Shown piece by piece: positions 528-21,701 of a stretch of DNA of 26,300 nucleotides. A program made the position numbers and the translations under genes. Below the pieces are notes generated by a model. That model searched no databases and had not been told where the DNA came from. It saw nothing but the letters and a program-made list of their open reading frames with translations. Origin of the DNA: Candidatus Vampirococcus lugosii (GTDB taxonomy: Bacteria > Patescibacteriota > Gracilibacteria > Absconditabacterales > Absconditicoccaceae); assembly GCF_018420025.1 (NCBI RefSeq), contig NZ_JAEDAM010000005.1, positions 1-26,300 on the forward strand. The letters are read 5' to 3'. Every line of letters begins with the position of its first letter. Position 1 is the first letter of the stretch.

Positions 528-1901
528 TTATGGTACTCTAAGACATCATTTTCCGTCAAAACAATATCAAGCATTTGAACCATGTGCTACCATTTTTCAA
601 TCTATACTAAGAGCAGTATCTGGAGATCCACTTGTATGAGGTGCCATACCTATACCAACTCATTTTTCAACTTCCAACCGTTTAAAATCTACTGGTTCAG
701 TAACTATCAATGTTCAATCTATAAAAACATCTCAATCTACATTAGTATTTTTTAAATTTGTATTTCATCAAACTGTTAAATGTTGATTTAAAGTTGTATC
801 TCATCAAACTGTTAAATCTTGATTTAAATTTGTATCTCAATCTACTTGTAAATCATTCTTCAAATGTGTATTTTCTTCAACAGTTAAATCTTGATTTAAA
901 TTTGTATCTCATAAAACTGTTAAATTTTTATCTAAAGTTGTATTTTCAGTTACATTCAATGTACCATCTATATTTGTATTCTTTAAATTTGTATCTCATA
1001 AAACTGTTAAATTTTTATCTAAAGTTGTATTTTCAGTTACATCCAATGTACCATCTATATTTGTATTTCAATCTACTTGTAAGTTTCACTTTATTGTTGT
1101 AAGTTCAGATGGGTCACTTATATTTACAGTACCTCTAATATTTGAACTATCAGACGGACTATTTCATAAAGTAGTATTTCATCAAACTCTTAAATTTTTA
1201 TCTAAAGTTGTATTTTGAGTTACATCCAATGTACCATCTATATTAGTATCTCAATCTACTTGTAAATCATTCTTCAAATGTGTAAAATCTTCTACAGTTA
1301 ATGTTCAACTCATTGTTGTATTTTCATCAACATGTAAATTATCCTTCAAATGTGTAAAATCTTCTACAGTTAATGTTCAACTCATTGTTGAATTTTCTTG
1401 TACATGAAGATTTTGTCTTAAATTAGTATCTCAATCTACTTGTAAATTATCCTTCAAATGTGTTTTTTTAGTTACATCCAATGTACCATCTATATTTGTA
1501 TTTCAATCTACTTGTAAATCATCCTTCAAATGTGTTTTTTTAGTTACATCCAATGTACCATCTATATTTGTATCTCTATCTACTTGTAAATCTCTACCAA
1601 TATATGTATCACCACTATCAGCACTTATACCAAAAGTTCTATTATAAGTACCACTACTAGTACCAGTAAATGTTTGAAAAGTTTCATAATTTGATCAACT
1701 TCAAGCATTTATTTCAAGTCTTGTATTTCAATCAATTCTTCAATTATGTTGGAAAAACATATGTTTTATATATGCCTTTGTATTATCAATATGCTGTTTA
1801 ATTGTTAAATCAGCAGAAAAAGATATCGCAAATATCAAAAAAGAAGATACTCAAAATCATAATATATACTTATAGTTATTACTATTTATTTTTGTTTTCA
1901 T
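528..1901 (-). CDS. Secreted/anchored repeat protein, 457 aa; octapeptide (L/V-x-V-x-G/E-N/D-T-x) beta-helix/fibre-like repeats
   Basis: ATG at 1901, TAA at 528-530, length 1374 nt (a multiple of 3), open only with TGA=Gly. The N-terminus has a hydrophobic signal/anchor (YILGFGVSSFLIFAISFSA). The body is repeats such as THLKDDLQVDGNTNIDGTLDVTKK and NLTVLGDTNLKNTNIDGTLNVTENTTLDK. C-terminus: ..VGIGMAPHTSGSPDTALSIDGKMVAHGSNAGYCFDGKGCLRVP*. Confidence 0.8.
901..1067 (-). repeat. In-frame tandem repeat, 80-bp unit with 87-bp period (29 codons)
   Basis: 901-980 and 988-1067 are identical except for one base (tacatTcaat vs tacatCcaat). Both lie inside the 528-1901 CDS. Confidence 0.9.
1272..1390 (-). 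repeat. In-frame tandem repeat, 72-bp period (24 codons)
   Basis: The 47-bp string cttcaaatgtgtaaaatcttctacagttaatgttcaactcattgttg occurs identically at 1272-1318 and 1344-1390. Confidence 0.9.
1431..1573 (-). repeat. In-frame tandem repeat, 72-bp period (24 codons)
   Basis: 1431-1501 and 1503-1573 match over 71 bp with one mismatch. They encode duplicated THLKD(D/N)LQVDGNTNIDGTLDVTKK. Confidence 0.9.
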
Positions 1902-2076: not shown

Positions 2077-2604
2077 TTATACTAATTTAAATAAATTATC
2101 TTTTAAAGATTTTCTCAATAAGTTTATTATTTCATTTAAAGATCAATAAAAAATTTCTTTTTCTTTATCATTACAAAAACTCATTTTTAAATTTTCAGGC
2201 ATAAAATCAATTATAGATGAATCAACTCAATCAAAAAAAGATTTATCAAAAACTTCATCTTCATACATTATATATTCCAAAAAAATTTTAAATTCTTGAT
2301 TTGTATTTTCAAGATTTGACATATTAATTCAAAATTGATTTGTTTTTTCTATATAAGGCATTATAGAAAATAATAAATCATTAATAATTTCAATATTTAT
2401 TTTTCATTCATCATTCAATAAATTTTTTATATATGGAACTATACAATTACAATTATGTAAATTTATATAAAACCATAATTTTATAAATTCACATTTAAAT
2501 TTTTTTAATTCCAAATTATCTTCCAATTCAGAAGAAAAAATTTTTATCAATCAATGATATTTTATTTTTTTTAAATTATTATCTTCATTCATAATCTCTT
2601 CCAT
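2077..2604 (-). CDS. Hypothetical protein, 175 aa (last gene of the four-gene cassette)
   Basis: ATG at 2604, TAA at 2077-2079, 528 nt, open with TGA=Gly. It starts 12 nt after the stop of the upstream 738-aa gene. Translation: MEEIMNEDNNLKKIKYHGLIKIF...KCEFIKLWFYINLHNCNCIVPYIKN...LRKSLKDNLFKLV*. I recognise no family. There is a small C/H cluster (C-x11-H-x-C-x-C). Confidence 0.6.
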
Positions 2605-2616
2605 TTTTTTTAATAA

Positions 2617-4833
2617 TTATTTAAATGTAATATGTAAACCAAAATTTCTTTTTTGAAATATGATACTAAATCAATCAATATCTAATTCATAAACTTTATT
2701 AAATACATCAGATGTAAACAATCAAATAATTATATTTTCAATATTTTCAGATATTTTTTGATTTATAAAATCTATGTATTCCATATAATTTATATTATTA
2801 GATTTCATATAAAATGATATATTATTTAAATATCAAAATTTATATGCTTTTATAAAATTTTCTTCTAATTTTTGATTTAATCATACTATTCATTTACTAA
2901 CTTTATTAAAATATATATCCAAATTCTCTTCTACAGATTTTATTATTAATGTATTTAATTCCAATGAATTATATAATTCATATGAATCATCAACTTCTTG
3001 ATAAGATAATGATAATCTTCATTTCATACCAGATTCTTTTAATGATTTATCTACTTTTTTAATTGTACTAAATACAAATTTTGTTCATCTTATGAAAATA
3101 TATAATTCATCTCATCAAGCACTTAATTCTATATTATCTCAAATTTTATCAGAAAGAGATTTTATAAAATAATTAAATTGTGATGTAACTAATGATCAAG
3201 TTGATAATAATATATCTTCATCTTTATTGATTTTATAATCTTTTATAGTATTTTTAAAATCAGAAAAATTCATAATTCACATATCTTTTATATCTACAAA
3301 TATTGAAATTCAATTTTGTGATTCTATATTTTGCATAAATTTATCTTTTGATAACATTCATTTATGAGAATGTGTTTGCAAAAATTCTATTCTTTTTATT
3401 TCTTCTTCATTTATTTCTTTTCATTTAAGATATGAATCTAATATTTCATTATCTCTATTTGCATCTTGTAAACTTTTATTTATATTTTCTCATCAAGGAA
3501 AAATAAAATCAAATCAATTATTTAATCCAAGCAAATATTGTTCTATATACCAATTTAAATAAAAATTTTTTGATTTAATTTCTTTTCATTTTCTTTTAGC
3601 TCTTATCAAAGCTGGATTTATAACTTTTTCTCAATCAATTTTTTGAGAAATTACAGGAAAAGTTTGTCAATCTAATTCAAATTCCTCTCATTCAAGTAAA
3701 AATATTTCTTGTTGAAAATAATCAAATTTTCTCATATTCTTTTCTATAATATCATAATTAGTATATTTTATAGGATATTTATTTGAATTTTTGGAAGCTA
3801 ATTCTGCTTGTCTAATTGCATGAACTTTTTCAGTATCTTTATTTAAAGAAGCTATATTTGTATATCAAATTCAAATATCTATTTTTCTCAATACTTTTTT
3901 TATTTTTATTTTTTCTCATTCGGGTAATATATTTAATAACTTATCTGATTTTATTACTTGATTTATTATTTGTTCTCTAGAATCATAAAATAATTGCAAT
4001 ATTTTATTTTCACAATTATTACTCTTTATATTAATTACAAGATTTTTGTAATCATTTTTTATTGTAATATAATTTTTTTGAAATTTCATTTCTATTTTTT
4101 GATAAATATGTTCTTTGATAATATCCATAAAAATATCTACAAAATTTTGTCAAAGATTATCATTCAAATATTTTATATTTTTGAAACTAAATCAAATCAA
4201 TACAGAATTTTCCTTTATTTTCATTATTGATAATAGAGGATGTAATTTTTCTATATTTTTTTTTATTTCTATTTTATCATTTAAATTTTCTTGTCAGTAT
4301 TCTTGTTCAGATTTTAAATCTTCTTCTTCATAGTTATCAATTAAATTTTCATTACTTGAATTTTTAAATCTTTTAAAATTTTTTGAAGTTTTATATTTTA
4401 TATTGGCAGAAAATTTTGATAATTTATAATTAAGTTGCATACTTCATCTTATAATTCATAATCAAGCAAATGGGATTGTTAATATAGAGGATATACTTGA
4501 AACTAATCATCAAGCAGTCCGATTTTCTTTATTTCTAAATAATTTTAATATATCTATTACATTTTCATTTGTTTCTTTATCAGTAATTATATTCATCAAT
4601 CAAATAATTGGATGCATTTTTCCTAATTCTTGTTTTTTTATATCAAATTCATATCAATTTTTAATTCTATAATATAAATATTGTGGTAAAGTTTTGATAA
4701 GTAATGGTATATCAGCAATAATTTTCAATATATCTTCAGCTAATTCAGGTGCTTCAAGTGATATTGCTAACAAAACTCATTTTCAAAATCATTTTTCTCA
4801 ATATTTTTTATTTAAAAAAATGTTTAGATTCAT
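2617..4833 (-). CDS. 738-aa protein with tandem GGDEF/Cas10-like palm modules (first degenerate, second with intact D...GGDE motif); putative nucleotide cyclase
   Basis: ATG at 4833 (in-frame stop upstream at 4858-4860), TAA at 2617-2619, 2217 nt. The standard-code ORF 3916-4128 lies in the same frame. Module 2 reads ISIFVDIKDMGIMN (D codon 3292-3294) ... NIELSAGGDELYIFIRG (GGDEL at 3103-3117) ... GRLSLSY. Module 1 (about 3760-4200) reads VLIGFSFKNIKYLNDNLGQNFVDIFM ... YITIKNDYKNLVINI ... KIDIGIGYTNIA..KVHAIRQAELASKNSNKYPIKY. It keeps the FKxxNDxxG...D...L and SiGiG...A..AK..G frame of GGDEF domains but lacks the catalytic D and GGDEF residues. Confidence 0.7.
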
Positions 4834-5347
4834 CACTAGATAATTTTGAATTAGACTTTAACATAGCTTGTTTTATAGTTTCTCATCATCTTATATTTTT
4901 TATCCATTTGCTAGGACTTGCAAAATAAATAAAATTTAGATCTCTATCTACACTTTCAAATTTATCTAATCATCATAAATTTATAATATCTATTATTCAT
5001 TTATTTAAATATTCAATATAATTTTGAAAATCATTTATTAATATTTTTCATTCTCTATTCATAAAATTATTTATATTAAATTGATTTATATATCAATTTT
5101 TATTTGAATCTAAATTAAAACTATTTAAAACAAAATCAATAATATCTTTATTTAAATTTTCTATAAATTCTTTGGAATTATAATAATCCAACGATTCTTC
5201 ATCTTCAAATTTTTTTATTTCATTACTAAAATTTGTTACAATTTTTTTAATTGTATAATAAGCTTCTTGTTTTGTTATAATCTCAGGATTTTGTTCATCA
5301 TTTTCTATAAAATTTAATCAATTTTTTATTTTATTTATTGAATTCAT
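4808..5347 (-). CDS. Hypothetical protein, 179 aa (second gene of the cassette)
   Basis: ATG at 5347, TAA at 4808-4810, 540 nt, open with TGA=Gly. Its 3' end overlaps the start of the 738-aa gene by 26 nt. Translation: MNSINKIKNGLNFIENDEQNPEIITKQEAYYTIKK...NLGGLDKFESVDRDLNFIYFASPSKWIKNIRGGETIKQAML...*. No family recognised. Confidence 0.6.
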
Positions 5348-5899: not shown

Positions 5900-8017
5900 A
5901 TGATAAATAAATTACAAATAAATGAAATTTCAAAAAGTATATTGTGGGAATGAAAACAATTTGAAATAAAAACTTGAAAACTTGCAAGTCAAGCTGATGG
6001 ATCGGTTGTAGTTAAAATATGAGATACTTCCGTTTTGGCGACAGCAGTAATAAATAAAAATCCAGATGAAAATAAAGATTTTATGCCACTAACTATAGAT
6101 TGTAGAGAATCTTTTTATGCTGGTGGTAAAATTTGATGAGCTCTTTATATAAGAAGAGAATGAAGACCATCCGAACAAACTATACTTACAGCTCGTCTTA
6201 CTGATAGACCTATAAGACCTATGTTTCCAGAATGAATGATAAATGATGTAGTAATTGCAATTACTCCTTTGAGTGTAGATAAAGAAAATTGAATATGAAT
6301 TCCTAGTATTATTTGAGCAAGTTTAGCAATAAATTTAGCTTGAATACCTTTTGAATCTGAAGTTTGAGCTGTAAAAATTTGATATAAAGATTGAAATTAT
6401 ATAATAAATCCAACTTATCAAGAAGTAAAAGAATGAATATTAGAACTTACATTAGCTTGAACAAAAGATGCAATTACAATGGTAGAATGTTCTGCAAATG
6501 AAGTTTGTGATGAAATATTATTGGAAGCTTTTAGAATATGACAAGAAGAAATAAGAAAAAATTGCGAATTACAAAATGAATTTTTGAAAAATTTTGAAAT
6601 AGAAAAAAAAGAAATAATAACTAATAAACCTAGTAAAGAACTTATTGAAAAAATAGAAAACTGTTTAAAAATTGAAGAATTAAATAAATTAATACCATCT
6701 AGCAAAAAAGAATTTAATAATCAATCAGAAATTATAAAAAATATAATATTTGAAAATTTTAAAAATGAATTGGAAGATGAAAATAATAAAGAAATAACAA
6801 AAATTAAATTATGATCTTGAGTTTTTAAAGTTATAAAAAATTTTATTAGAAAAAAAATACTAGAAGAAGAAAAAAGAGTTGATTGAAGAAAACTTGATCA
6901 AATAAGACCTCTATATTGTGAAACTTGATTATGAAATAATAGAATTCATTGAATATGACTTTTTCAAAGATGAGAAACACAAGTTTTCAGTGCAACTACA
7001 TTATGAGCACCTTGAGATATTTTATTAGTAGATGATATGGAATCTGATGCTATAGAACAAAGATTTATGCATCATTACAATATGCCTTGATTTAGTACAA
7101 ATGAAGCAAAATCATCAAGATGAGCTAGTAGAAGAGAAATTTGACATTGAAAATTAGCAGAAAAAGCATTGGAAGCAATGATACCAAGTGAAGAAGATTT
7201 TCCTTATACATTAAGAGTAGTTAGTGAAGTTTTCAGTTGTAATTGAAGTACATCTATGGCAAGTGTATGTGCAACTACCCTATCATTGATGGATGCATGA
7301 GTTCCTATCAAAAATCCTGTAAGTTGAATAGCAATGTGATTAATTACTGATTGAGAAAAATTTAAAATTTTGACTGATATACAGTGAGTAGAAGATTTTA
7401 CATGAGATATGGATTTTAAAGTTGCTTGAACTAAAAATTGAATTACTGCTCTACAAATGGATATGAAAATAAAATGATTAAGTTTGGAAATAATAAAACA
7501 AGCAATACAAAAAGCAAATACTGCAAGATTAGATATTTTGGATTTTATGTTGCAAACTATTGATAAACCAAATGAAGAATTAAGTATTTATGCACCCAAA
7601 ATTACAAAAATAAAACTTAAAGCTAGTCAAATTAGAGAAGTTATATGATCAGGTTGAGCAAATATTAATGAAATCACAAAAGAAACTTGAGTTAAAATAG
7701 ATTTTAAAGAAGATTGAACAACAATAATTACTGCAAAAGACACAAAATCTTGAGAAGAAGCTATTAAAATGATACAAGAAAGTATATGGTCTCCTGAAAT
7801 ATGACAAATCATAGAATGAAAAATCACTAGAATAGAACAATATTGATTATTTGTTGATATTGGAAAAAATAAATCATGATTATGTCATGTAAAAAATATT
7901 TGAAAATCTTTTGTAAGTGATCTAAAAACTATGTACAAAGAATGACAAAAAATTAGAGTTAAAATTATATGAATTGATGATAATAATGGTAAAATTGACC
8001 TTAGAAAAGAGGATTAA
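5900..8017 (+). CDS. pnp: Polyribonucleotide nucleotidyltransferase (PNPase), 705 aa
   Basis: ATG at 5900, TAA at 8015-8017. With TGA=Gly the translation gives [104 protein letters not shown], and a C-terminal KH/S1 region (GSGGANINEI..; [16 protein letters not shown]). Confidence 0.95.
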
Positions 8018-11725: not shown

Positions 11726-11760
11726 GATAACAATCAAGATAAAGATTGTTATTTTTTTAT
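11726..11760. terminator. Hairpin terminator shared by convergent genes
   Basis: 9-bp stem (ataacaatc 11727-11735 / gattgttat 11744-11752) followed by T7. It lies 50 nt after the + strand stop at 11677 and overlaps the minus-strand stop codon at 11749-11751. Confidence 0.55.
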
Positions 11761-12705
11761 AAATTCTTCATATAAAATATATAATATAGCAAAACTTAAA
11801 TACATATCTGCAAAATTAAATATCGGGAAATCTAATATAGAAATAAAATCCCTTACTCCACCAAGATAAAGTCTATCAATTAAATTTCATATAGTACCAG
11901 CAAATAAAAGAACAAAAATAAAACTAGAAATCCAATTTTTTTTAAGTAAAAATATAAAAAATATTGTACTAAAAAAAGTTAAAAAATAAACTATACTATA
12001 ATTAACGGATATTCACCAAGATATTCATTCATTAAATGCTTGTTTTATGAAAGGCAAAAATTGAAAATATCACAAATCATAAAAAATATATTTTGTAAAT
12101 AAATCTAAAATTACCAATAAAAAAATAAATATAATACTATAACAAATAGGAATATATTCTATTTTTCTTTTAATATACAAATAAATTTCTTTAATAGATT
12201 TCAATTTTCATATTTTTTTTAAATCGTCTATATCTAAATATTTTTGATTTTTTAGCCATTGGGAAAATGATCTCATATTTTTTCAAGTAAAATCTCATAT
12301 AGTTCATCTTTCAAAATCTATAATATTAATATTATTTTTTTTATCTACCAAAATATTTGAAAAAGGTCTTATCATTTCACCATGAATTACTCATAATTTA
12401 TCCAAAATATAAATTTTTTGCAATAAAGATTTAATTAATTTCTTTTTCTTAAAATTAGTTGATTTATCAAATATTTTATCAAAAGACTCCCCTTCAATAT
12501 ATTGATATTCAAAATAATTTTCTCAAATAGATTCTATTTGTGGAACAAATTTTATTCAATTATTATTTAATTTCTTTATTATATCTATTTCTTTTAATAT
12601 ACTTGCTTTTTTAGTTTGATCTAAAGCAATTTTTTTTGCAATTTTTTTATTTCATTTTTCATAAATATAAACTTCTCATCTTCGTCATTGTCATATTTTT
12701 TCCAT
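11749..12705 (-). CDS. lspA: Fusion protein: atypical small protein-kinase-like domain (Bud32/RIO/COG2112-like) + lipoprotein signal peptidase II, 318 aa
   Basis: A single uninterrupted frame runs from ATG 12705 to TAA 11749-11751 (957 nt). N-terminal half: MEKIGQGRRGEVYIYEKGNKKIAKKI...GVIHGEMIRPFSNILVDKKNNINIIDFERG. C-terminal half: ..IIFIFLLVILDLFTKYIF...GTIGNLIDRLYLGGVRDFISILDFPIFNFADMYL (the LspA motifs GN.iDR and FN.AD). Confidence 0.8.
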
Positions 12706-16260: not shown

Positions 16261-17622
16261 TTATATATTTTCTTTAATTTTACTATGTAAATCTCAAGCA
16301 CTAAAAACTATTAATATATCATTTTTTTGATAAGTATCCAAATATTCCTTTATTTTTTCTGTATAAAATCAATTTATTTGTTTAGCAAAAACTGTTGATA
16401 AATCTTTTGTACAATTAATTTTTATTCATTTCTTTTTTCAATAAGATATTATTTCAGCTTCATTTTCTCTTGCTGTATAAGTTTTATATACTATACAATT
16501 TTTATCTTTTAGTATATTTTTAAATTCTTCCCAAAATTGTATTAATCTTTTGGATTGATGTCATTGAAAAATAATTTTTATATTTTTGTTATTAAATTTA
16601 TTTTGAAATCATTCTATAGTAGTATTTAATTCATTTGGATGATGTCCATAGTCCAAATATATTTTTGCTCAATTTTTATTTTCTCAAATATATTCAGCTC
16701 TCCTTCATATTCATCAAAATTTTTGTAAATACTGTATTATTTCTTTTTTATCTTTTGAAGTAATATATGAAATTATATTTGTAGATAAATTTCAATTTTT
16801 TTGATTATGTTCTCATCGTATATTTTCAAAATTAATTAAATTTTCTTCTATATTTGTTCATTTATTATTTATTTTTTCTTGATCAAATTCGTTTGACAAA
16901 AATATTTTATCATTTACTTTTTTTGTAAAATCTTCAAATATTTTGTAATATAATTCTTGTGTTTTGAATACATCTACATGATCCAATTCTATATTTGTAA
17001 TTCATGCAATATAAGTATCCAAATACAAAAAATGTTCATTAAATTCATCAGCTTCTACAATCATATAAAATTTTTTTATTAGATTTTCATCTATATAAGT
17101 TTGTTTATTATTTGTAATATAATTAATAACTTGTCATAAGAAATCTTTATTTTGCTCTCCTATTACAAAACTTTCATTATCAAAATCATTTAAACTAGCT
17201 CATACTATTCATAATCCAAAATCATAACAAAACTTTTTCGCCAAGTATACACACATAGCTGTACTTGTGCTTTTCCCATGTGTTCAAGCTATACTAATAG
17301 TCTTGTAAAACTTACTAATTTCTCATAAAAATTCAAAATAAGAATAATTTTTATGATATTTTTTAAAATCAAATTCCATATTTTTGGAGTCAATCACTTC
17401 TTTGGTATTTTCGGCTGCATCAGAATATATTACAATATCTTCTTTTTGTATTTCATATTTTCAATGTCATATTATTGTTTTGATACCTTTATCAACAAGT
17501 TTTTTTGTGTTTTCACTGTCATATTTATCAATACAAATTAAATTTTGATATCAAAATTGAAAAAATAAATTTGCAATATTATTAAGTCAAGTTCATCAAG
17601 CTCAAACTATTATTATATTCAT
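16261..17622 (-). CDS. murC: UDP-N-acetylmuramate--L-alanine ligase, 453 aa
   Basis: ATG at 17622, TAA at 16261-16263, 1362 nt. Translation: MNIIIVGAGGTGLNNIANLFFQFGY..., ISIAGTHGKSTSTAM, VEADEFNEHFL, TNIELDHVD, GGIGRRAEYIGE, DYGHHPNE. The glycines in GAGGTG are TGA codons (17587-17607). Confidence 0.9.
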
Positions 17623-18533
17623 TAATTTATTAGTAAGAAATTAGTTATTAAAAATCATCATCATATTACCAAAACTCATATAAAAATATATATTATATTT
17701 CTTTTTAAATTTGTCAAAGTATTTTCATCATCAGGTTTTACCAACAATAAATATGTTTGAAATATTATTATTATTAATATAATAAATGCAGTAAATCATA
17801 AAATCCAGTTGATAATAGTTGTAATAAAACCTATATTTGTTTCACTTGGTAATATTGCTCATCATATTTCTCCAACTTCTCATGCACTATTAATAGAACT
17901 TTCTCATTCTCAGTATACTAATTGAACAATTTCACTAGCAAACAAAATAGTTAATATTCAAACTATATTTCGTACAAATATCATTCTTGCACTTTTTGCA
18001 GATTCATCTTGATTTGTAGTTAACATTTTGATACCCTGTATCAACAATATTACAAATAAAAATCATACTGCCAAATATGCAAATATTTTAATAAACGGAT
18101 AAGCAATATCATTATAAAGTTGACTTGCCAAATCTATTCATTTTATTTCTTCAAATTCTGTACCTGCTTCTCATATTACTGTATCAGTTATGAATAATGC
18201 AGATATCATTATTAATATTCATACCGTTCATCGCACCATAAAAGATATTCATTTTTTTTGCTCTTCTTCACTATCTTTACCAAACATTAATTTATAAAAT
18301 CAAAAAATTGCTACTATTATTCATACTAATATAAGTATAGGAATTATTATATCTTTTCATACATAAAATATAAGATCTCTAACTCATTCTATATTATAAT
18401 TAACTATTCAACGATCAGTAACATTTTGTAATTGTTTATTAGATTGATTAAGTTCACCGTCAAATCTTCCTTGTGCAAAAGTATTTGATATTAAAAATAA
18501 TGTTAACAATATTAAAATTATTATTTTTTTCAT
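17622..18533 (-). CDS. Secreted polytopic protein built of three TrbC/VirB2-type pilin-like helical-hairpin modules, 303 aa
   Basis: ATG at 18533, TAA at 17622-17624, overlapping the murC ATG (TAATG). Signal peptide: MKKIIILILLTLFLISNTFAQG. Three hairpins (TM, charged loop, TM) follow. Hairpin 1: IIIPILILVGIIVAIFGFYKLMFGKDSEEEQKKGISFMVRGTVGILIMISALFI. Hairpin 2: FIKIFAYLAVGFLFVILLIQGIKMLTTNQDESAKSARMIFVRNIVGILTILFA. Hairpin 3: IINWILGFTAFIILIIIIFQTYLLLVKPDDENTLTNLKRNIIYIFIGVLVIGGGFLI. Confidence 0.6.
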
Positions 18534-18535
18534 TT

Positions 18536-19597
18536 TTATTTTTTATTTTTATTTATAAAATCTGCTACAAGATTAATTAAATCTACTATTTCTTTAAATA
18601 TAGGAATATTGATAATCTTTTTTTTATATATCATATAAAGATATCTTATAATCACAAAAAAATATCATAAATATAATATATTGGATATAGAATTAAATTT
18701 AATTATAGTATTTATATAAATAATATTTGATAAAACTAAAGCAAAAACAAAAGCTATCAAATATTGTAAAAATATATCTTTGTATTTAATAATATTTTCT
18801 TTATCATATTTATCAATATTTAATATATATCAATATTCATTTTTATATTTTTCCAAATCTACAAAATATTCTTTTTTATTAGTATCAGTATCTTTAATTT
18901 TTTTGTAAAAAAATATTATCATAGATTTAATATAAGAAAATATTTCTTCTGGATTCGTATCATATAATTTATCTATTTTTTCTTTATATTTATCTGGTAT
19001 AATATCTATATTGAAAACTAAAGACACAGTTCTAACAAAAATTAATGACAAAAGAACTAATGATAAAGGTATATTTAATGTAATTATAGTAAATACAGCC
19101 CACAAATACCACCACAAAAAACTTTCTTTTACCCACCAATATTTATTTATATCAGGATTATTGTACCATATATGAAAATTATTTATAGGCAAGAAATAAA
19201 AAGCTATATCTATAGAATTTACATTTATTTTTTTATATTTGATATCAACAATATCAATTTTTGACTGAAATATTTGTTTATCTTGAAATATAAGAAAAAA
19301 TCATGCAATTATCATTAATACTGCAATTGTAGCAATTAAACTTGACAATCAAGTAAAAAAATAAACATATAAATTTATTGATATTGATACAATATAAATA
19401 ATTAATGAAAAAATTAATAATCATAAAATAATTAATCAATATCTAATATATCACATAATAAATTGTTTATCTTCATCAGATATATTATTATCATTTTTTC
19501 AATTTAGTAAAAAATATACTCAAGGAGCAAAGAATAATATTGAAACAAGACTATAAGTATGTTTATCTTCAAATTTAAAATCTTTATTTTCTTCCAT
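18536..19597 (-). CDS. Polytopic membrane protein of the T4SS-like operon (possible VirB6/TrbL-type channel component), 353 aa
   Basis: ATG at 19597, TAA at 18536-18538, only 2 nt before the next start. The standard-code ORF 18830-19192 is in the same frame. It has about seven hydrophobic segments and a Trp-rich stretch (HIWYNNPDINKYWWVKESFLWWYLW). The function is inferred from context only. Confidence 0.55.
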
Positions 19598-19628
19598 TAA
19601 ATATATTATTTTATTTTATATAAATATT

Positions 19629-21701
19629 TTATTTAACATTAGTTTCTATAAATTCTTTTTCATAAGGAGAAGCTAATATTTTCATTGCAACATGTTGGTT
19701 TCAAGCAAAGAATAATCATTCTCATATATTTGAAGAAACTAATTTTTGTTTTTCTGCTTCAGATAAACCAAAAACAGTATTTAATGCTTTTATAGAAGAA
19801 GTAGATTGTTTTAATAATAAATTAACTGCAGAGTTTGCAACTATAGGTTTACCATAAGGACTTCTTACAAAATCTTCTACATCTTGTGAAATAGTTGTAA
19901 CTCAAAGTCAATATTTCCTAGCTCTTTTAATAAGTCAAAATAAAAAATTAGCAGACATATCATGTTGCATCATAATCCAAGCTTCATCTATAATTAATAA
20001 TCTTTTTTTCTTATTTGATCTTACTTTTGTCCAGATAAAATTAAGCACATTAAACATTGCTGGAGTTTTTAATGATTCATCAAGATCCCTTATACTAAAT
20101 ACAGTAAGTCATGTATCCAAATCTACATTAGTAGGATTATTAAATAATTTTGAAAATGTTCATGTTACATATTTACTAATTTTTAATCAAAGAGTTGCTC
20201 ATCATTCCATTCATTCCAAAATATGCAATAAATCTTCAAGTAGTGGAACAGTTTTTCATTCTGGTGTTTCATCATCAAATGTTATATCTTTTATAGAATA
20301 AGTAGATTGTAATGCTGTATCAAGTATTGCCTCTTCTTCTACAGATAATCATCAGACTAAAACTCATATAAGTCATATCAAATTCATTACCTGTGATCTA
20401 AGAAGATCTCATTTTCAATATTCTACATCTTCTATTTTTGGTGGCAAATCAAATGGATTAATATTTTCAGAAGAATTTACTGCTATATTAATATATGTTC
20501 ATCATACACTATTTATCAATGTTTTATATTCATTTTCTGGATCTATAACAATTACATCAATTCATAAAATAAGATATCTCAAAATTTCTAATTTTACAGT
20601 AAAAGATTTACCAGCTCAAGAAGTTGCCAATACTGTACTATTTGCATTTGCAAGTTTTGGAGAAAATCTATCAAAAATTATTAATCATCAAGTATGAAGA
20701 TTTATTCAATATAATATTCATTTATTATCTACTAAATCACTTGATATAAAAGGGAAAGATCAAGCAATAGAACTTGTTAACATACTTCTTGATATTCCTA
20801 ATTCGTCCAAACATAAAGGATTTATAGATTTGTATCACTCATCCATCCTTCGTATACAAGGTTTTACTTTAATTCAATTTCATCAAATTTTTTGTTCAAA
20901 TTTTTTGGATTCTTCATTTAATTTTTCTTCATTATCTGCATATATTGTAGTATAATAAGATGCTTGAAAATACCTTTCTTCTCTAGTAGCTAATTTTTGT
21001 CTTATTGATTCAACATCTTTATATTCCAATTCTATTTCTGAATCCAAAGTTATTCATTTATTCATAGATTCTGAAATTTCGGCTTTAAGTTGTGTAGCTC
21101 TTCTTTTCAACATTCATTGCATAGATGCATCATCTGATGGATATATAAACCATGTCATATCCCATTTACTATGGAAAGACAATGTATCTCTAGTCCATAA
21201 CATATCTAAATATGAAGGATATCATATTGCATAATATGTTCTTCACATAACTCAACTTATATTAAAATTTCATGATTTCAATTCCCAATACGATGCCGCT
21301 ATATGAGATTTATAATCTGAAAAATTTTCTATATATTCTTTTTCTATTTTATTAATATGCTCTCTAAGTTTTGATGTCAATAAACTATCTTTATATTTTT
21401 CATCTGGTAAATTTATTAAATATCTTAATTGATCTTGTAAAGATTTGTTTTCTACAGGACTTTTTCAATCTATTTCTTTAGAGTTTTTTCATTTCTTATT
21501 TTTACTATTTGTTCATCATGTTCAAAACATCATATTAAAAATACTATCAAAAAATCCTACTTTTTTAGTATCTCAAGATTTTTTTCATTGTTTACTTATA
21601 TTTTGTATTTTTTCAATATCAATTTTGATTCAACCTCATCTTTGAATATATCAAGTATAATTTGAATCATAAACAACATCTTTACAATTATTTAAACTCA
21701 T
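19629..21701 (-). CDS. virB4: VirB4/TrbE/CagE-family type IV secretion ATPase, 690 aa
   Basis: ATG at 21701, TAA at 19629-19631, 2073 nt. Walker A: NSTVLATSGAGKSFTVKLEI (20604-20621). Walker B: KKRLLIIDEAWIMM. Then RKYGLGVTTISQDVEDF and a C-terminal ..GEGLFFAGNQHVAMKILASPYE. The N-terminal ~110 aa is a non-canonical Gly/Lys-rich region. Confidence 0.9.

Follow-up and report, generated by a model that had tools for sequence, protein, structure and literature searches.

A gene on the minus strand of a 26,300-nucleotide stretch of the genome of Candidatus Vampirococcus lugosii (positions 1 to 26,300 of contig NZ_JAEDAM010000005.1; this whole stretch is called the window below) encodes, in its most likely form, a 909-residue protein whose core is predicted to hold two GGDEF-fold domains in a single chain. 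The first of them (module 1) is catalytically degenerate, and the second (module 2) is, by sequence, catalytically intact. This tandem is a conserved, previously undescribed architecture inside a known superfamily: our literature searches brought up neither an account of an intramolecular GGDEF-GGDEF pair nor a paper combining 'GGDEF' with 'Gracilibacteria'. In the current understanding, a GGDEF enzyme is a symmetric dimer in which both domains are live. We tentatively favour the view, with a confidence a little short of even, that the protein is a lineage-specific tandem-GGDEF nucleotidyl synthase working as an asymmetric unit, in which one site is live and the other is dead and binds guanine, and that it is probably anchored in the membrane.

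Residue numbers are those of the 909-residue protein; a preliminary description of the locus, made from the sequence alone, used numbers lower by 171 (its D514 is D685 here). Conservation was counted over 52 core sequences, 17-36% identical to the query.

Residue conservation in the two modules

In module 2, the residues D685, N693, G745, D746, E747, R777 and L795 are present in 52/52 sequences, G690 and K803 in 51/52 and G744 in 49/52. The fifth residue of the motif, Phe in GGDEF, is Ile, Val or Leu in 49/52. D685, in the FVDIKDMGIMN strand, is located at the end of β1, the position of D327 in PleD, and the GGDE residues are located on the β2-β3 hairpin (model strands E385-390 and E393-399). 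An intact second module with a metal-binding Asp and a GGDE loop had been put forward in the preliminary description, and both elements are found exactly where it had placed them, the Asp codon at 3292-3294 and the GGDE codons at 3106-3117. Its remark that no I-site precedes the loop also holds in the alignment of the 52 homologues, with no RxxD motif upstream of GGDE. By motif alignment, N693 takes the place of the guanine-contact N335 of PleD. Outside this catalytic set, the equivalent of PleD K332 is Gly in 51/52 sequences and that of R366 is mostly Ser or Ala. Position 722, beside the conserved T721, corresponds to D344 when the motifs are aligned across an insertion of 15-40 residues following β1-α1, and is occupied by D, K, E, N, Q or S.

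In module 1, K392, N395, D404 and P370 are present in 52/52 sequences, Y433 in 50/52 and both R427 and K434 in 49/52. The position equivalent to the metal Asp (387, 8 residues before N395) is Asn, Ser or Thr, and never Asp or Glu, in the 52 homologues. The two glycines are replaced by Val or Ile followed by Arg or Lys, the GGDEF site reading (V/I)(R/K)x(D/N)Y. The loss of the metal Asp and of the Gly-Gly pair, noticed earlier in the V. lugosii sequence, is thus consistent across the family. By motif spacing, the K-x-x-N-D-x-x-G-x-x-x-x-D segment of module 1 corresponds to the GGDEF signature F-K-x-i-N-D-x-x-G-H-x-x-G-D, and the HMMER profile alignment places 'isfsGiKklNDklgqefvD' opposite 'iDvDkFKeINDtwGHntGD' of DosC, other cyclases being aligned likewise. 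We take K392, N395 and D404 to be the counterparts of the guanine contacts K332, N335 and D344 of PleD, and R427 that of R366. Module 1 therefore retains the presumed base contacts after the loss of metal binding and of the GG hairpin, whereas module 2 retains the catalytic set and appears to have lost three canonical substrate contacts, a pattern of reciprocal degeneration. When the two modules were compared with each other using hhalign, the internal similarity was not significant.

Predicted structure and profile matches

The core (residues 355-909, 555 residues) was modelled with AlphaFold2 from a 50-sequence alignment containing the homologues in their database (Trp-containing) form. The resulting model is compact, with a predicted local distance difference test score (pLDDT) of 92.6, reaching ~95 in module 1, and a predicted template modelling score (pTM) of 0.91. 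It consists of two β-α-α-β-β-α-β-α units, a middle domain of strands and helices, and a C-terminal α/β domain. A second model, limited to module 1 and the middle domain, had a pLDDT of 94.6. Using the program Foldseek, this second model retrieved GGDEF domains at template modelling scores (TMt) of 0.55-0.62, for instance 6eib_B (TMt 0.62, root mean square deviation (rmsd) 3.7) and DosC 4zve (TMt 0.60). Class III cyclases, the only other structures matched, ranked below them (TMt 0.38-0.48), and no Cas10 was present among the top 50 matches. In the search against the PDB, the GGDEF structure 3mtk_B fitted the whole core (TMt 0.65, rmsd 3.7) better than module 1 alone (TMt 0.53, rmsd 5.8), which indicates that module 2 is the matching part and has a GGDEF fold as well. 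A palm or GGDEF-like fold is thus predicted for both regions, as the preliminary description had supposed, and D685, G745, D746 and E747 are invariant in the family.

For the whole core, the best PDB match was a Cas10 protein, Cmr2dHD 3w2w (E=7.6e-6 over 668 columns), followed by other Cmr2 and Csm1 entries, and then by the single-chain C1-C2 unit of adenylyl cyclase 9 (AC9) and by GGDEF domains. Among sequence models, Pfam GGDEF was the sole recurrent family, detected in 10 of 24 members with a best E-value of 2.4e-5, and TIGR00254 was detected in 8 of 24 (best 2.2e-4). The class III cyclase model was absent from the Pfam families hit by members. The V. lugosii protein itself had no Pfam or NCBIfam GGDEF match at E<=1, and searches with Pfam and PADLOC for this protein and both flanking open reading frames (ORFs) retrieved nothing.

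Genetic code

In the minus-strand frame 2617-4833, all 39 in-frame 'stops' are TGA, and translation with table 11 gives no long ORF over this region. Among the codons of long ORFs in the window, TGA accounts for 5-7%, GGN for <1% and TGG for ~0.3%, as is characteristic of TGA=Gly (code 25). The Ca. V. lugosii genome paper likewise describes UGA as a glycine codon, and makes no mention of GGDEF or c-di-GMP (cyclic di-GMP) (PMC8080830). A homologue from an organism with the standard code and 58% GC (P0039, at locus L016) shows Gly at 12 of the 22 aligned V. lugosii TGA sites versus 24 of 528 other positions. Trp is found at none of the aligned TGA sites, and the Gly sites include both glycines of GGDE. 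The UniRef entry 100% identical to our code-25 translation (P0001) is named 'GGDEF domain-containing protein'.

If TGA were read as Trp (code 4) or as a stop, 'GGDE' would become WWDE, the motif would be gone and the intact module would be an artefact of translation. Such a reading is in keeping with the public database copies, which mostly carry Trp at TGA, but is contradicted by the codon census, by the published code (PMC8080830) and by the standard-code homologue with its Gly, never Trp, at TGA columns including those of GGDE. Moreover, the AlphaFold2 model built with Gly is highly confident. We therefore regard this explanation as refuted, its probability being negligible.

In the database copies that we inspected (P0002-P0151), which mostly have Trp at TGA, W amounts to 3-10% of the residues and G to <2%. 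As Trp stands in place of Gly, GGDE reads WWDE and domain searches fail. For code-25 lineages, the Trp translation thus represents a systematic annotation hazard, masking GGDE from domain searches.

Gene boundaries and N-terminal domain

The gene had been described as starting at 4833. A Logan assembly from the same organism (L003, SRR13241708) is identical to the window over 2731 nt but for one base, in an A7/T7 run. With the six bases that this assembly has in the run, ORF 4808-5347 joins ORF 2617-4833 into one 909-residue ORF. In addition, a homologue of 1005 residues (27-29% identity) aligns along all 909 residues, including the upstream part. From these two observations, the real gene is most likely 2617-5347, the start at 4833 being an artefact of the assembly or of a frameshift. 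A programmed frameshift at the A-run was judged unlikely, because the frame continues uninterrupted in the independent assembly from this organism.

Consequently, the 'about 190 N-terminal residues' of the preliminary description are part of an N-terminal domain of ~350 residues, a modular unit that it had overlooked together with the conserved downstream gene presented below. Many proteins match profile positions 1-300 only, and dozens of them, in the same lineages, have unrelated C-termini. One carries a Metallophos (calcineurin-like phosphoesterase) domain. The N-terminal domain itself has no Pfam match. It contains the conserved hydrophobic segment LVSSISSILTIPFAGLGII, with a Kyte-Doolittle mean of 1.9 over 19 residues (1.5-2.1 for the equivalents in homologues). 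Judging from these sequence features, this separate domain is probably inserted in the membrane, and its recurrence with varied C-termini suggests a shared membrane-anchor or targeting module.

Distribution of the family

Searching species-representative genomes with a degenerate nucleotide pattern for DIKDMG(TGA)IxN recovered 11 true homologues, all of them in metagenome-assembled genomes of 21-28% GC with TGA as a sense codon, labelled as Gracilibacteria, Peribacteria or Patescibacteria group. An exhaustive profile search against 1.84 billion representatives yielded 163 cluster representatives with E<=1e-3, of which 121 reached E<=1e-10. A word-indexed homology search retrieved 3 proteins only, low-complexity AT-rich words dominating, and an alignment-based repeat performed worse. 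The core (profile positions ~340-885) is paired with a V. lugosii-type N-terminus, with other long N-termini, or with ~90 residues only. Many members have this last form, with a length of ~640 residues and without the N-terminal domain. For eight long members with other N-terminal extensions, no Pfam domains could be detected in the extensions.

The family is found mostly in bacteria with UGA=Gly that belong to the candidate phyla radiation (CPR), among them the predator V. lugosii. Of this organism's proteins, about half are without annotation and, to our knowledge, nothing is known of its second-messenger signalling. One member (locus L016, 5270-10112) comes from the standard-code organism of 58% GC introduced above, so the family is not confined to recoded lineages. 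PAS/degenerate-GGDEF and EAL genes are located ~1 kb downstream of this member.

A conserved gene pair

A same-strand ORF of ~175-190 residues (138 in locus L007) is located within a few bases of the 3' end of the gene in the window and in 9 of 10 readable homologous loci, and the further loci L017 and L018 have it as well. In BLAST comparisons, seven of these ORFs group together, whereas the V. lugosii copy, although positionally equivalent, has diverged too far to match them. Apart from designed helical bundles, searches with the partner protein retrieved no relatives in Pfam or the PDB, and they gave no CARF or transmembrane signal. This helical protein is a candidate partner or receptor.

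Proposed function and alternatives

In the mechanism that we propose, module 2 would be the only catalytic centre, with its metal Asp on β1, its GGDE on β2-β3 and a phosphate-binding Lys. Module 1 would be a dead GGDEF domain binding a guanine nucleotide via its retained Lys, Asn, Asp and Arg, and packed rigidly on module 2. The non-catalytic site would present or sense one nucleotide and the single live site would form the phosphodiester. The resulting signal would be a di- or oligonucleotide, not necessarily c-di-GMP, and the downstream helical protein of ~180 residues would probably read or control it. We favour such an asymmetric unit on account of the reciprocal residue pattern, of a module 1 pocket as conserved as the catalytic site, and of the rigid packing in the model.

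The idea that the product may be other than c-di-GMP, raised before from the sequence, gains some support from module 2 apparently lacking the K332, D344 and R366 equivalents that module 1 keeps. The occurrence of a constant small partner gene beside a conserved, undescribed family also makes such a messenger possible. In a more specific version, the protein would be a GGDEF-derived, CRISPR-independent intramolecular pseudo-dimer, convergent with Cas10 and with the adenylyl cyclase of mammals, in which a guanine-specific dead site and a live site of relaxed base specificity produce a messenger that is not c-di-GMP (e.g. linear pppGpN or a mixed cyclic dinucleotide). This messenger would be read by the ~180-residue helical protein, the two proteins making up a signalling system present mainly in UGA=Gly CPR bacteria (Absconditabacteria, Gracilibacteria). 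We consider this version possible but rather doubtful.

Several observations weigh against the asymmetric unit. The residue equivalences of module 2 depend on a motif alignment across an insertion, and a profile of module 2 only gave no significant match to PDB sequences (DosC E=1.2), its top matches being chance occurrences of 'GGDE' in beta-hexosaminidase. At R427, an Arg in 49/52 relatives, V. lugosii carries Ile. Finally, the modelled arrangement is unlike that of Cas10 or class III cyclases, with a template modelling score (TM) of ~0.2 and an rmsd of 16-26 Å to Cas10 and AC9. Such a low TM despite a collinear alignment means that only one domain superposes at a time. These values leave the choice between an asymmetric and a canonical enzyme undecided, because a productive GGDEF pair has another geometry and the PDB search was made on single chains.

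The main rival is indeed a canonical diguanylate cyclase, in which the whole protein would homodimerise (e.g. via the N-terminal domain), module 2 would then convert two GTP into c-di-GMP, and module 1 would be only an allosteric sensor of guanine nucleotides or c-di-GMP, like the degenerate domains of GGDEF-EAL proteins. Such an enzyme would be expected to keep its metal and GGDE residues, all of which are intact, and to resemble GGDEF proteins in sequence and not Cas10, as observed. It would also fit a modelled arrangement that cannot be superposed on Cas10 or adenylyl cyclase (AC) pseudo-dimers, the position of the standard-code homologue ~1 kb from PAS/degenerate-GGDEF and EAL genes, and the candidate oligomerising or membrane domain of the long forms. 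However, module 2 apparently lacks counterparts of K332, D344 (guanine readout) and R366, which canonical cyclases have and module 1 strictly keeps, an I-site RxxD is missing, the model shows neither a stalk nor a coiled coil ahead of module 2, and many members (~640 residues) are devoid of the N-terminal domain. Taken together, we view a canonical cyclase as an unlikely though serious alternative.

The protein could also be a non-enzymatic pseudo-enzyme, both modules only binding nucleotides and the whole serving the downstream partner as receptor or scaffold. Its extreme divergence from GGDEF proteins, with no Pfam match at E<=1 and a module 2 profile that is not significant against the PDB, would agree with this, as would GGDE[I/V/L] in place of GGDEF. 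Nevertheless, D685, G745, D746, E747 and N693 are kept in 52/52 sequences and K803 in 51/52, across 17-36% identity. A full catalytic set maintained at such divergence is hard to explain without catalysis, and we hold this alternative to be improbable.

Genomic context and other features of the window

The coordinates of the gene, of its domains and motifs and of the partner genes are given in Table 1. The neighbours in the window are PNPase, NDK, YidC, a MurC-like protein, type IV secretion system (T4SS) genes and others. In the homologous loci, the recurrent neighbours are the partner gene and PNPase only, the others being housekeeping, type IV secretion or pilus genes. PNPase adjoins the gene pair in three loci, with differing orientations: 5900-8017 (+) in the window, 3864-5930 in L014 and 3856-5922 in L015. 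DosC and DosP of E. coli associate with PNPase; the adjacency seen here may or may not be meaningful.

No cas families were detected in the window or in the Pfam-annotated homologous loci. Rfam RNAs, c-di-GMP riboswitches and repeat-array-type RNA included, were likewise missing from the window and from 12 homologous loci. The absence of a CRISPR context around the gene, pointed out in the preliminary description, is thereby confirmed for the window. No tRNAs were found in the window. A phage origin or a defence island was rejected: the exact motif had no matches in viral contigs and there was no PADLOC match. In BFVD, only single-domain GGDEF or palm matches were obtained, none at E<0.001.

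Three other features of the window deserve mention. First, one ORF (11749-12705, minus strand) joins an N-terminal Pkinase-like domain (E=2e-10) to a C-terminal signal peptidase II (Peptidase_A8, E=1e-18), an unusual fusion. Second, a protein of 457 residues (528-1901, minus strand) has an N-terminal hydrophobic segment and many 'DGTLDVT..T.LKD.LQVDG.TN' repeats. It matches models of bactofilin and of the left-handed beta-helix, and its role may be that of a surface fibre or adhesin. Third, a cluster at 17622-21701 (minus strand) encodes a VirB4/TraG-like P-loop ATPase (690 residues), a polytopic membrane protein (353 residues) and a T4SS-pilin/TrbC-like protein (303 residues), which together represent a conjugation-like or type IV secretion apparatus of this predatory episymbiont.

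Table 1. Positions of the tandem-GGDEF gene, its domains and motifs, and the partner genes (window coordinates unless a locus is given).
Feature	Coordinates	Strand	Basis
Full gene, most likely form, 909 residues in code 25	2617..5347	-	Logan assembly L003 and 1005-residue homologue
A7/T7 homopolymer, one base longer than in the independent assembly, frame broken	4814..4820	.	Assembly comparison
N-terminal domain, residues 1 to ~354, no known family	4285..5347	-	Profile search, Pfam
Hydrophobic segment LVSSISSILTIPFAGLGII, residues 281-299, probable membrane helix	4450..4506	-	Kyte-Doolittle
Module 1, catalytically degenerate GGDEF-fold domain (predicted), residues 375-525	3772..4224	-	AlphaFold2, Foldseek, profile alignment
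Module 1 nucleotide-contact motif (putative): K392 (4171-4173), N395 (4162-4164), D404 (4135-4137)	4135..4173	-	Each 52/52
Middle domain, residues 526-675, small beta unit and helices joining the modules; invariant K586, K662	3322..3771	-	AlphaFold2, conservation
Module 2, GGDEF-fold domain (predicted), catalytically intact by sequence, residues 676-820	2887..3321	-	AlphaFold2, Foldseek, conservation
D685, metal-binding Asp of FVDIKDMGIMN	3292..3294	-	52/52
G744-G745-D746-E747, codons TGA TGA GAT GAA	3106..3117	-	49/52, 52/52, 52/52, 52/52
C-terminal small alpha/beta domain, residues 821-909, with stop codon	2617..2886	-	AlphaFold2, pLDDT 77-91
Co-conserved downstream gene, 175-residue helical protein, no known family	2077..2604	-	Locus comparison
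Partner gene in L001	11020-11571
Partner gene in L004	4747-5274
Partner gene in L006	3752-4291
Partner gene in L009	7034-7576
Partner gene in L014	3316-3852
Partner gene in L015	5943-6485
Partner gene in L017	5836-6372
Partner gene in L018	7922-8494

Comparison with known systems

The closest relatives of the core are the GGDEF cyclases (PleD, WspR, DosC; PF00990, TIGR00254). Both modules have their fold in the models (TM ~0.6), module 2 likewise has the β1 Asp, the GGDE hairpin and the phosphate Lys, and module 1 shares the K-x-x-N-D-x-x-G-x-x-x-x-D signature at canonical spacing. Unlike in these enzymes, two folds, one of them dead, are predicted to be packed with middle and C-terminal domains in a single chain. 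Module 2 has I/V/L as its fifth motif residue and an insertion, has no I-site and apparently lacks the K332, D344 and R366 equivalents. The sequence scores are sub-threshold or absent. Dead GGDEF domains are themselves familiar from GGDEF-EAL proteins (Caulobacter PdeA/CC3396, LapD, FimX), in which the degenerate domain retains nucleotide-binding residues and regulates the neighbouring catalytic domain. There, the neighbour is an EAL phosphodiesterase, whereas here it is a second GGDEF domain.

The mCpol protein of Panoptes anti-phage systems is a CRISPR-independent palm cyclase that shares a cassette of two genes with its small partner (PMC12657218, PMC12657230), a layout that recalls the present gene pair. 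It differs in having a single minimal palm domain, a membrane (2TM-beta) or CARF-TM effector and a location in defence islands. The present system has two GGDEF folds, a soluble helical partner and housekeeping neighbours, with no PADLOC match and no viral relatives.

Cas10 (Csm1/Cmr2) comes close in overall design, as it combines in one polypeptide a non-catalytic Palm1, a catalytic GGD(D/E) Palm2, an intervening domain and a C-terminal domain. The protein might then be a true Cas10 homologue, the orphan or degraded effector subunit of a type III CRISPR system. Cas10 proteins are its best whole-chain PDB matches, and the V. lugosii genome encodes two CRISPR systems, both at other loci, with a type III system among its content (PMC8080830). 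On the other hand, the window and 12 homologous loci are free of cas genes and of Rfam matches, and neither an HD domain nor a CRISPR array accompanies the gene. The motif is an invariant GGDE, where Cas10 has GGDD, and the V. lugosii core contains a single Cys, so there is no Cys4 zinc finger. The sequence affinity is with GGDEF, module 1 carrying a GGDEF-specific signature, and its model with the middle domain retrieved no Cas10 in the top 50. The relative orientation of the Cas10 palms is not matched either (TM 0.17-0.23, rmsd 18-26 Å, from Foldseek superposition of the predicted model). Because of the GGDEF-type signature, the GGDE motif, the missing zinc finger and cas partners, and the non-superposing geometry, we rejected membership of the Cas10 family, which we now regard as very improbable. 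The tandem core is most likely an independent duplication of GGDEF. As for the Cas10-like pseudo-dimer of the preliminary description, the succession of a dead and a live palm in one chain stands, and a Cas10-like geometry or composite site is not supported (TM ~0.2).

The C1-C2 unit of mammalian adenylyl cyclase and the other class III pseudo-heterodimers also have tandem palm-type cyclase domains in one chain, with a reciprocal loss of catalytic versus substrate-contact residues that leaves a single live site. They differ in their own F-x-D-I-x-G-F-T type motifs, absent here, and in a geometry that is not superposable. Moreover, GGDEF domains bind each nucleotide inside one domain, and not across the interface. 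If the asymmetric unit proposed here is right, it would be a third independent case, after Cas10 and mammalian adenylyl cyclase, of a dead and a live fold joined in one unit. The reciprocal loss of substrate-contact and catalytic residues fits the design of these two enzymes, and could point to a new signalling nucleotide.

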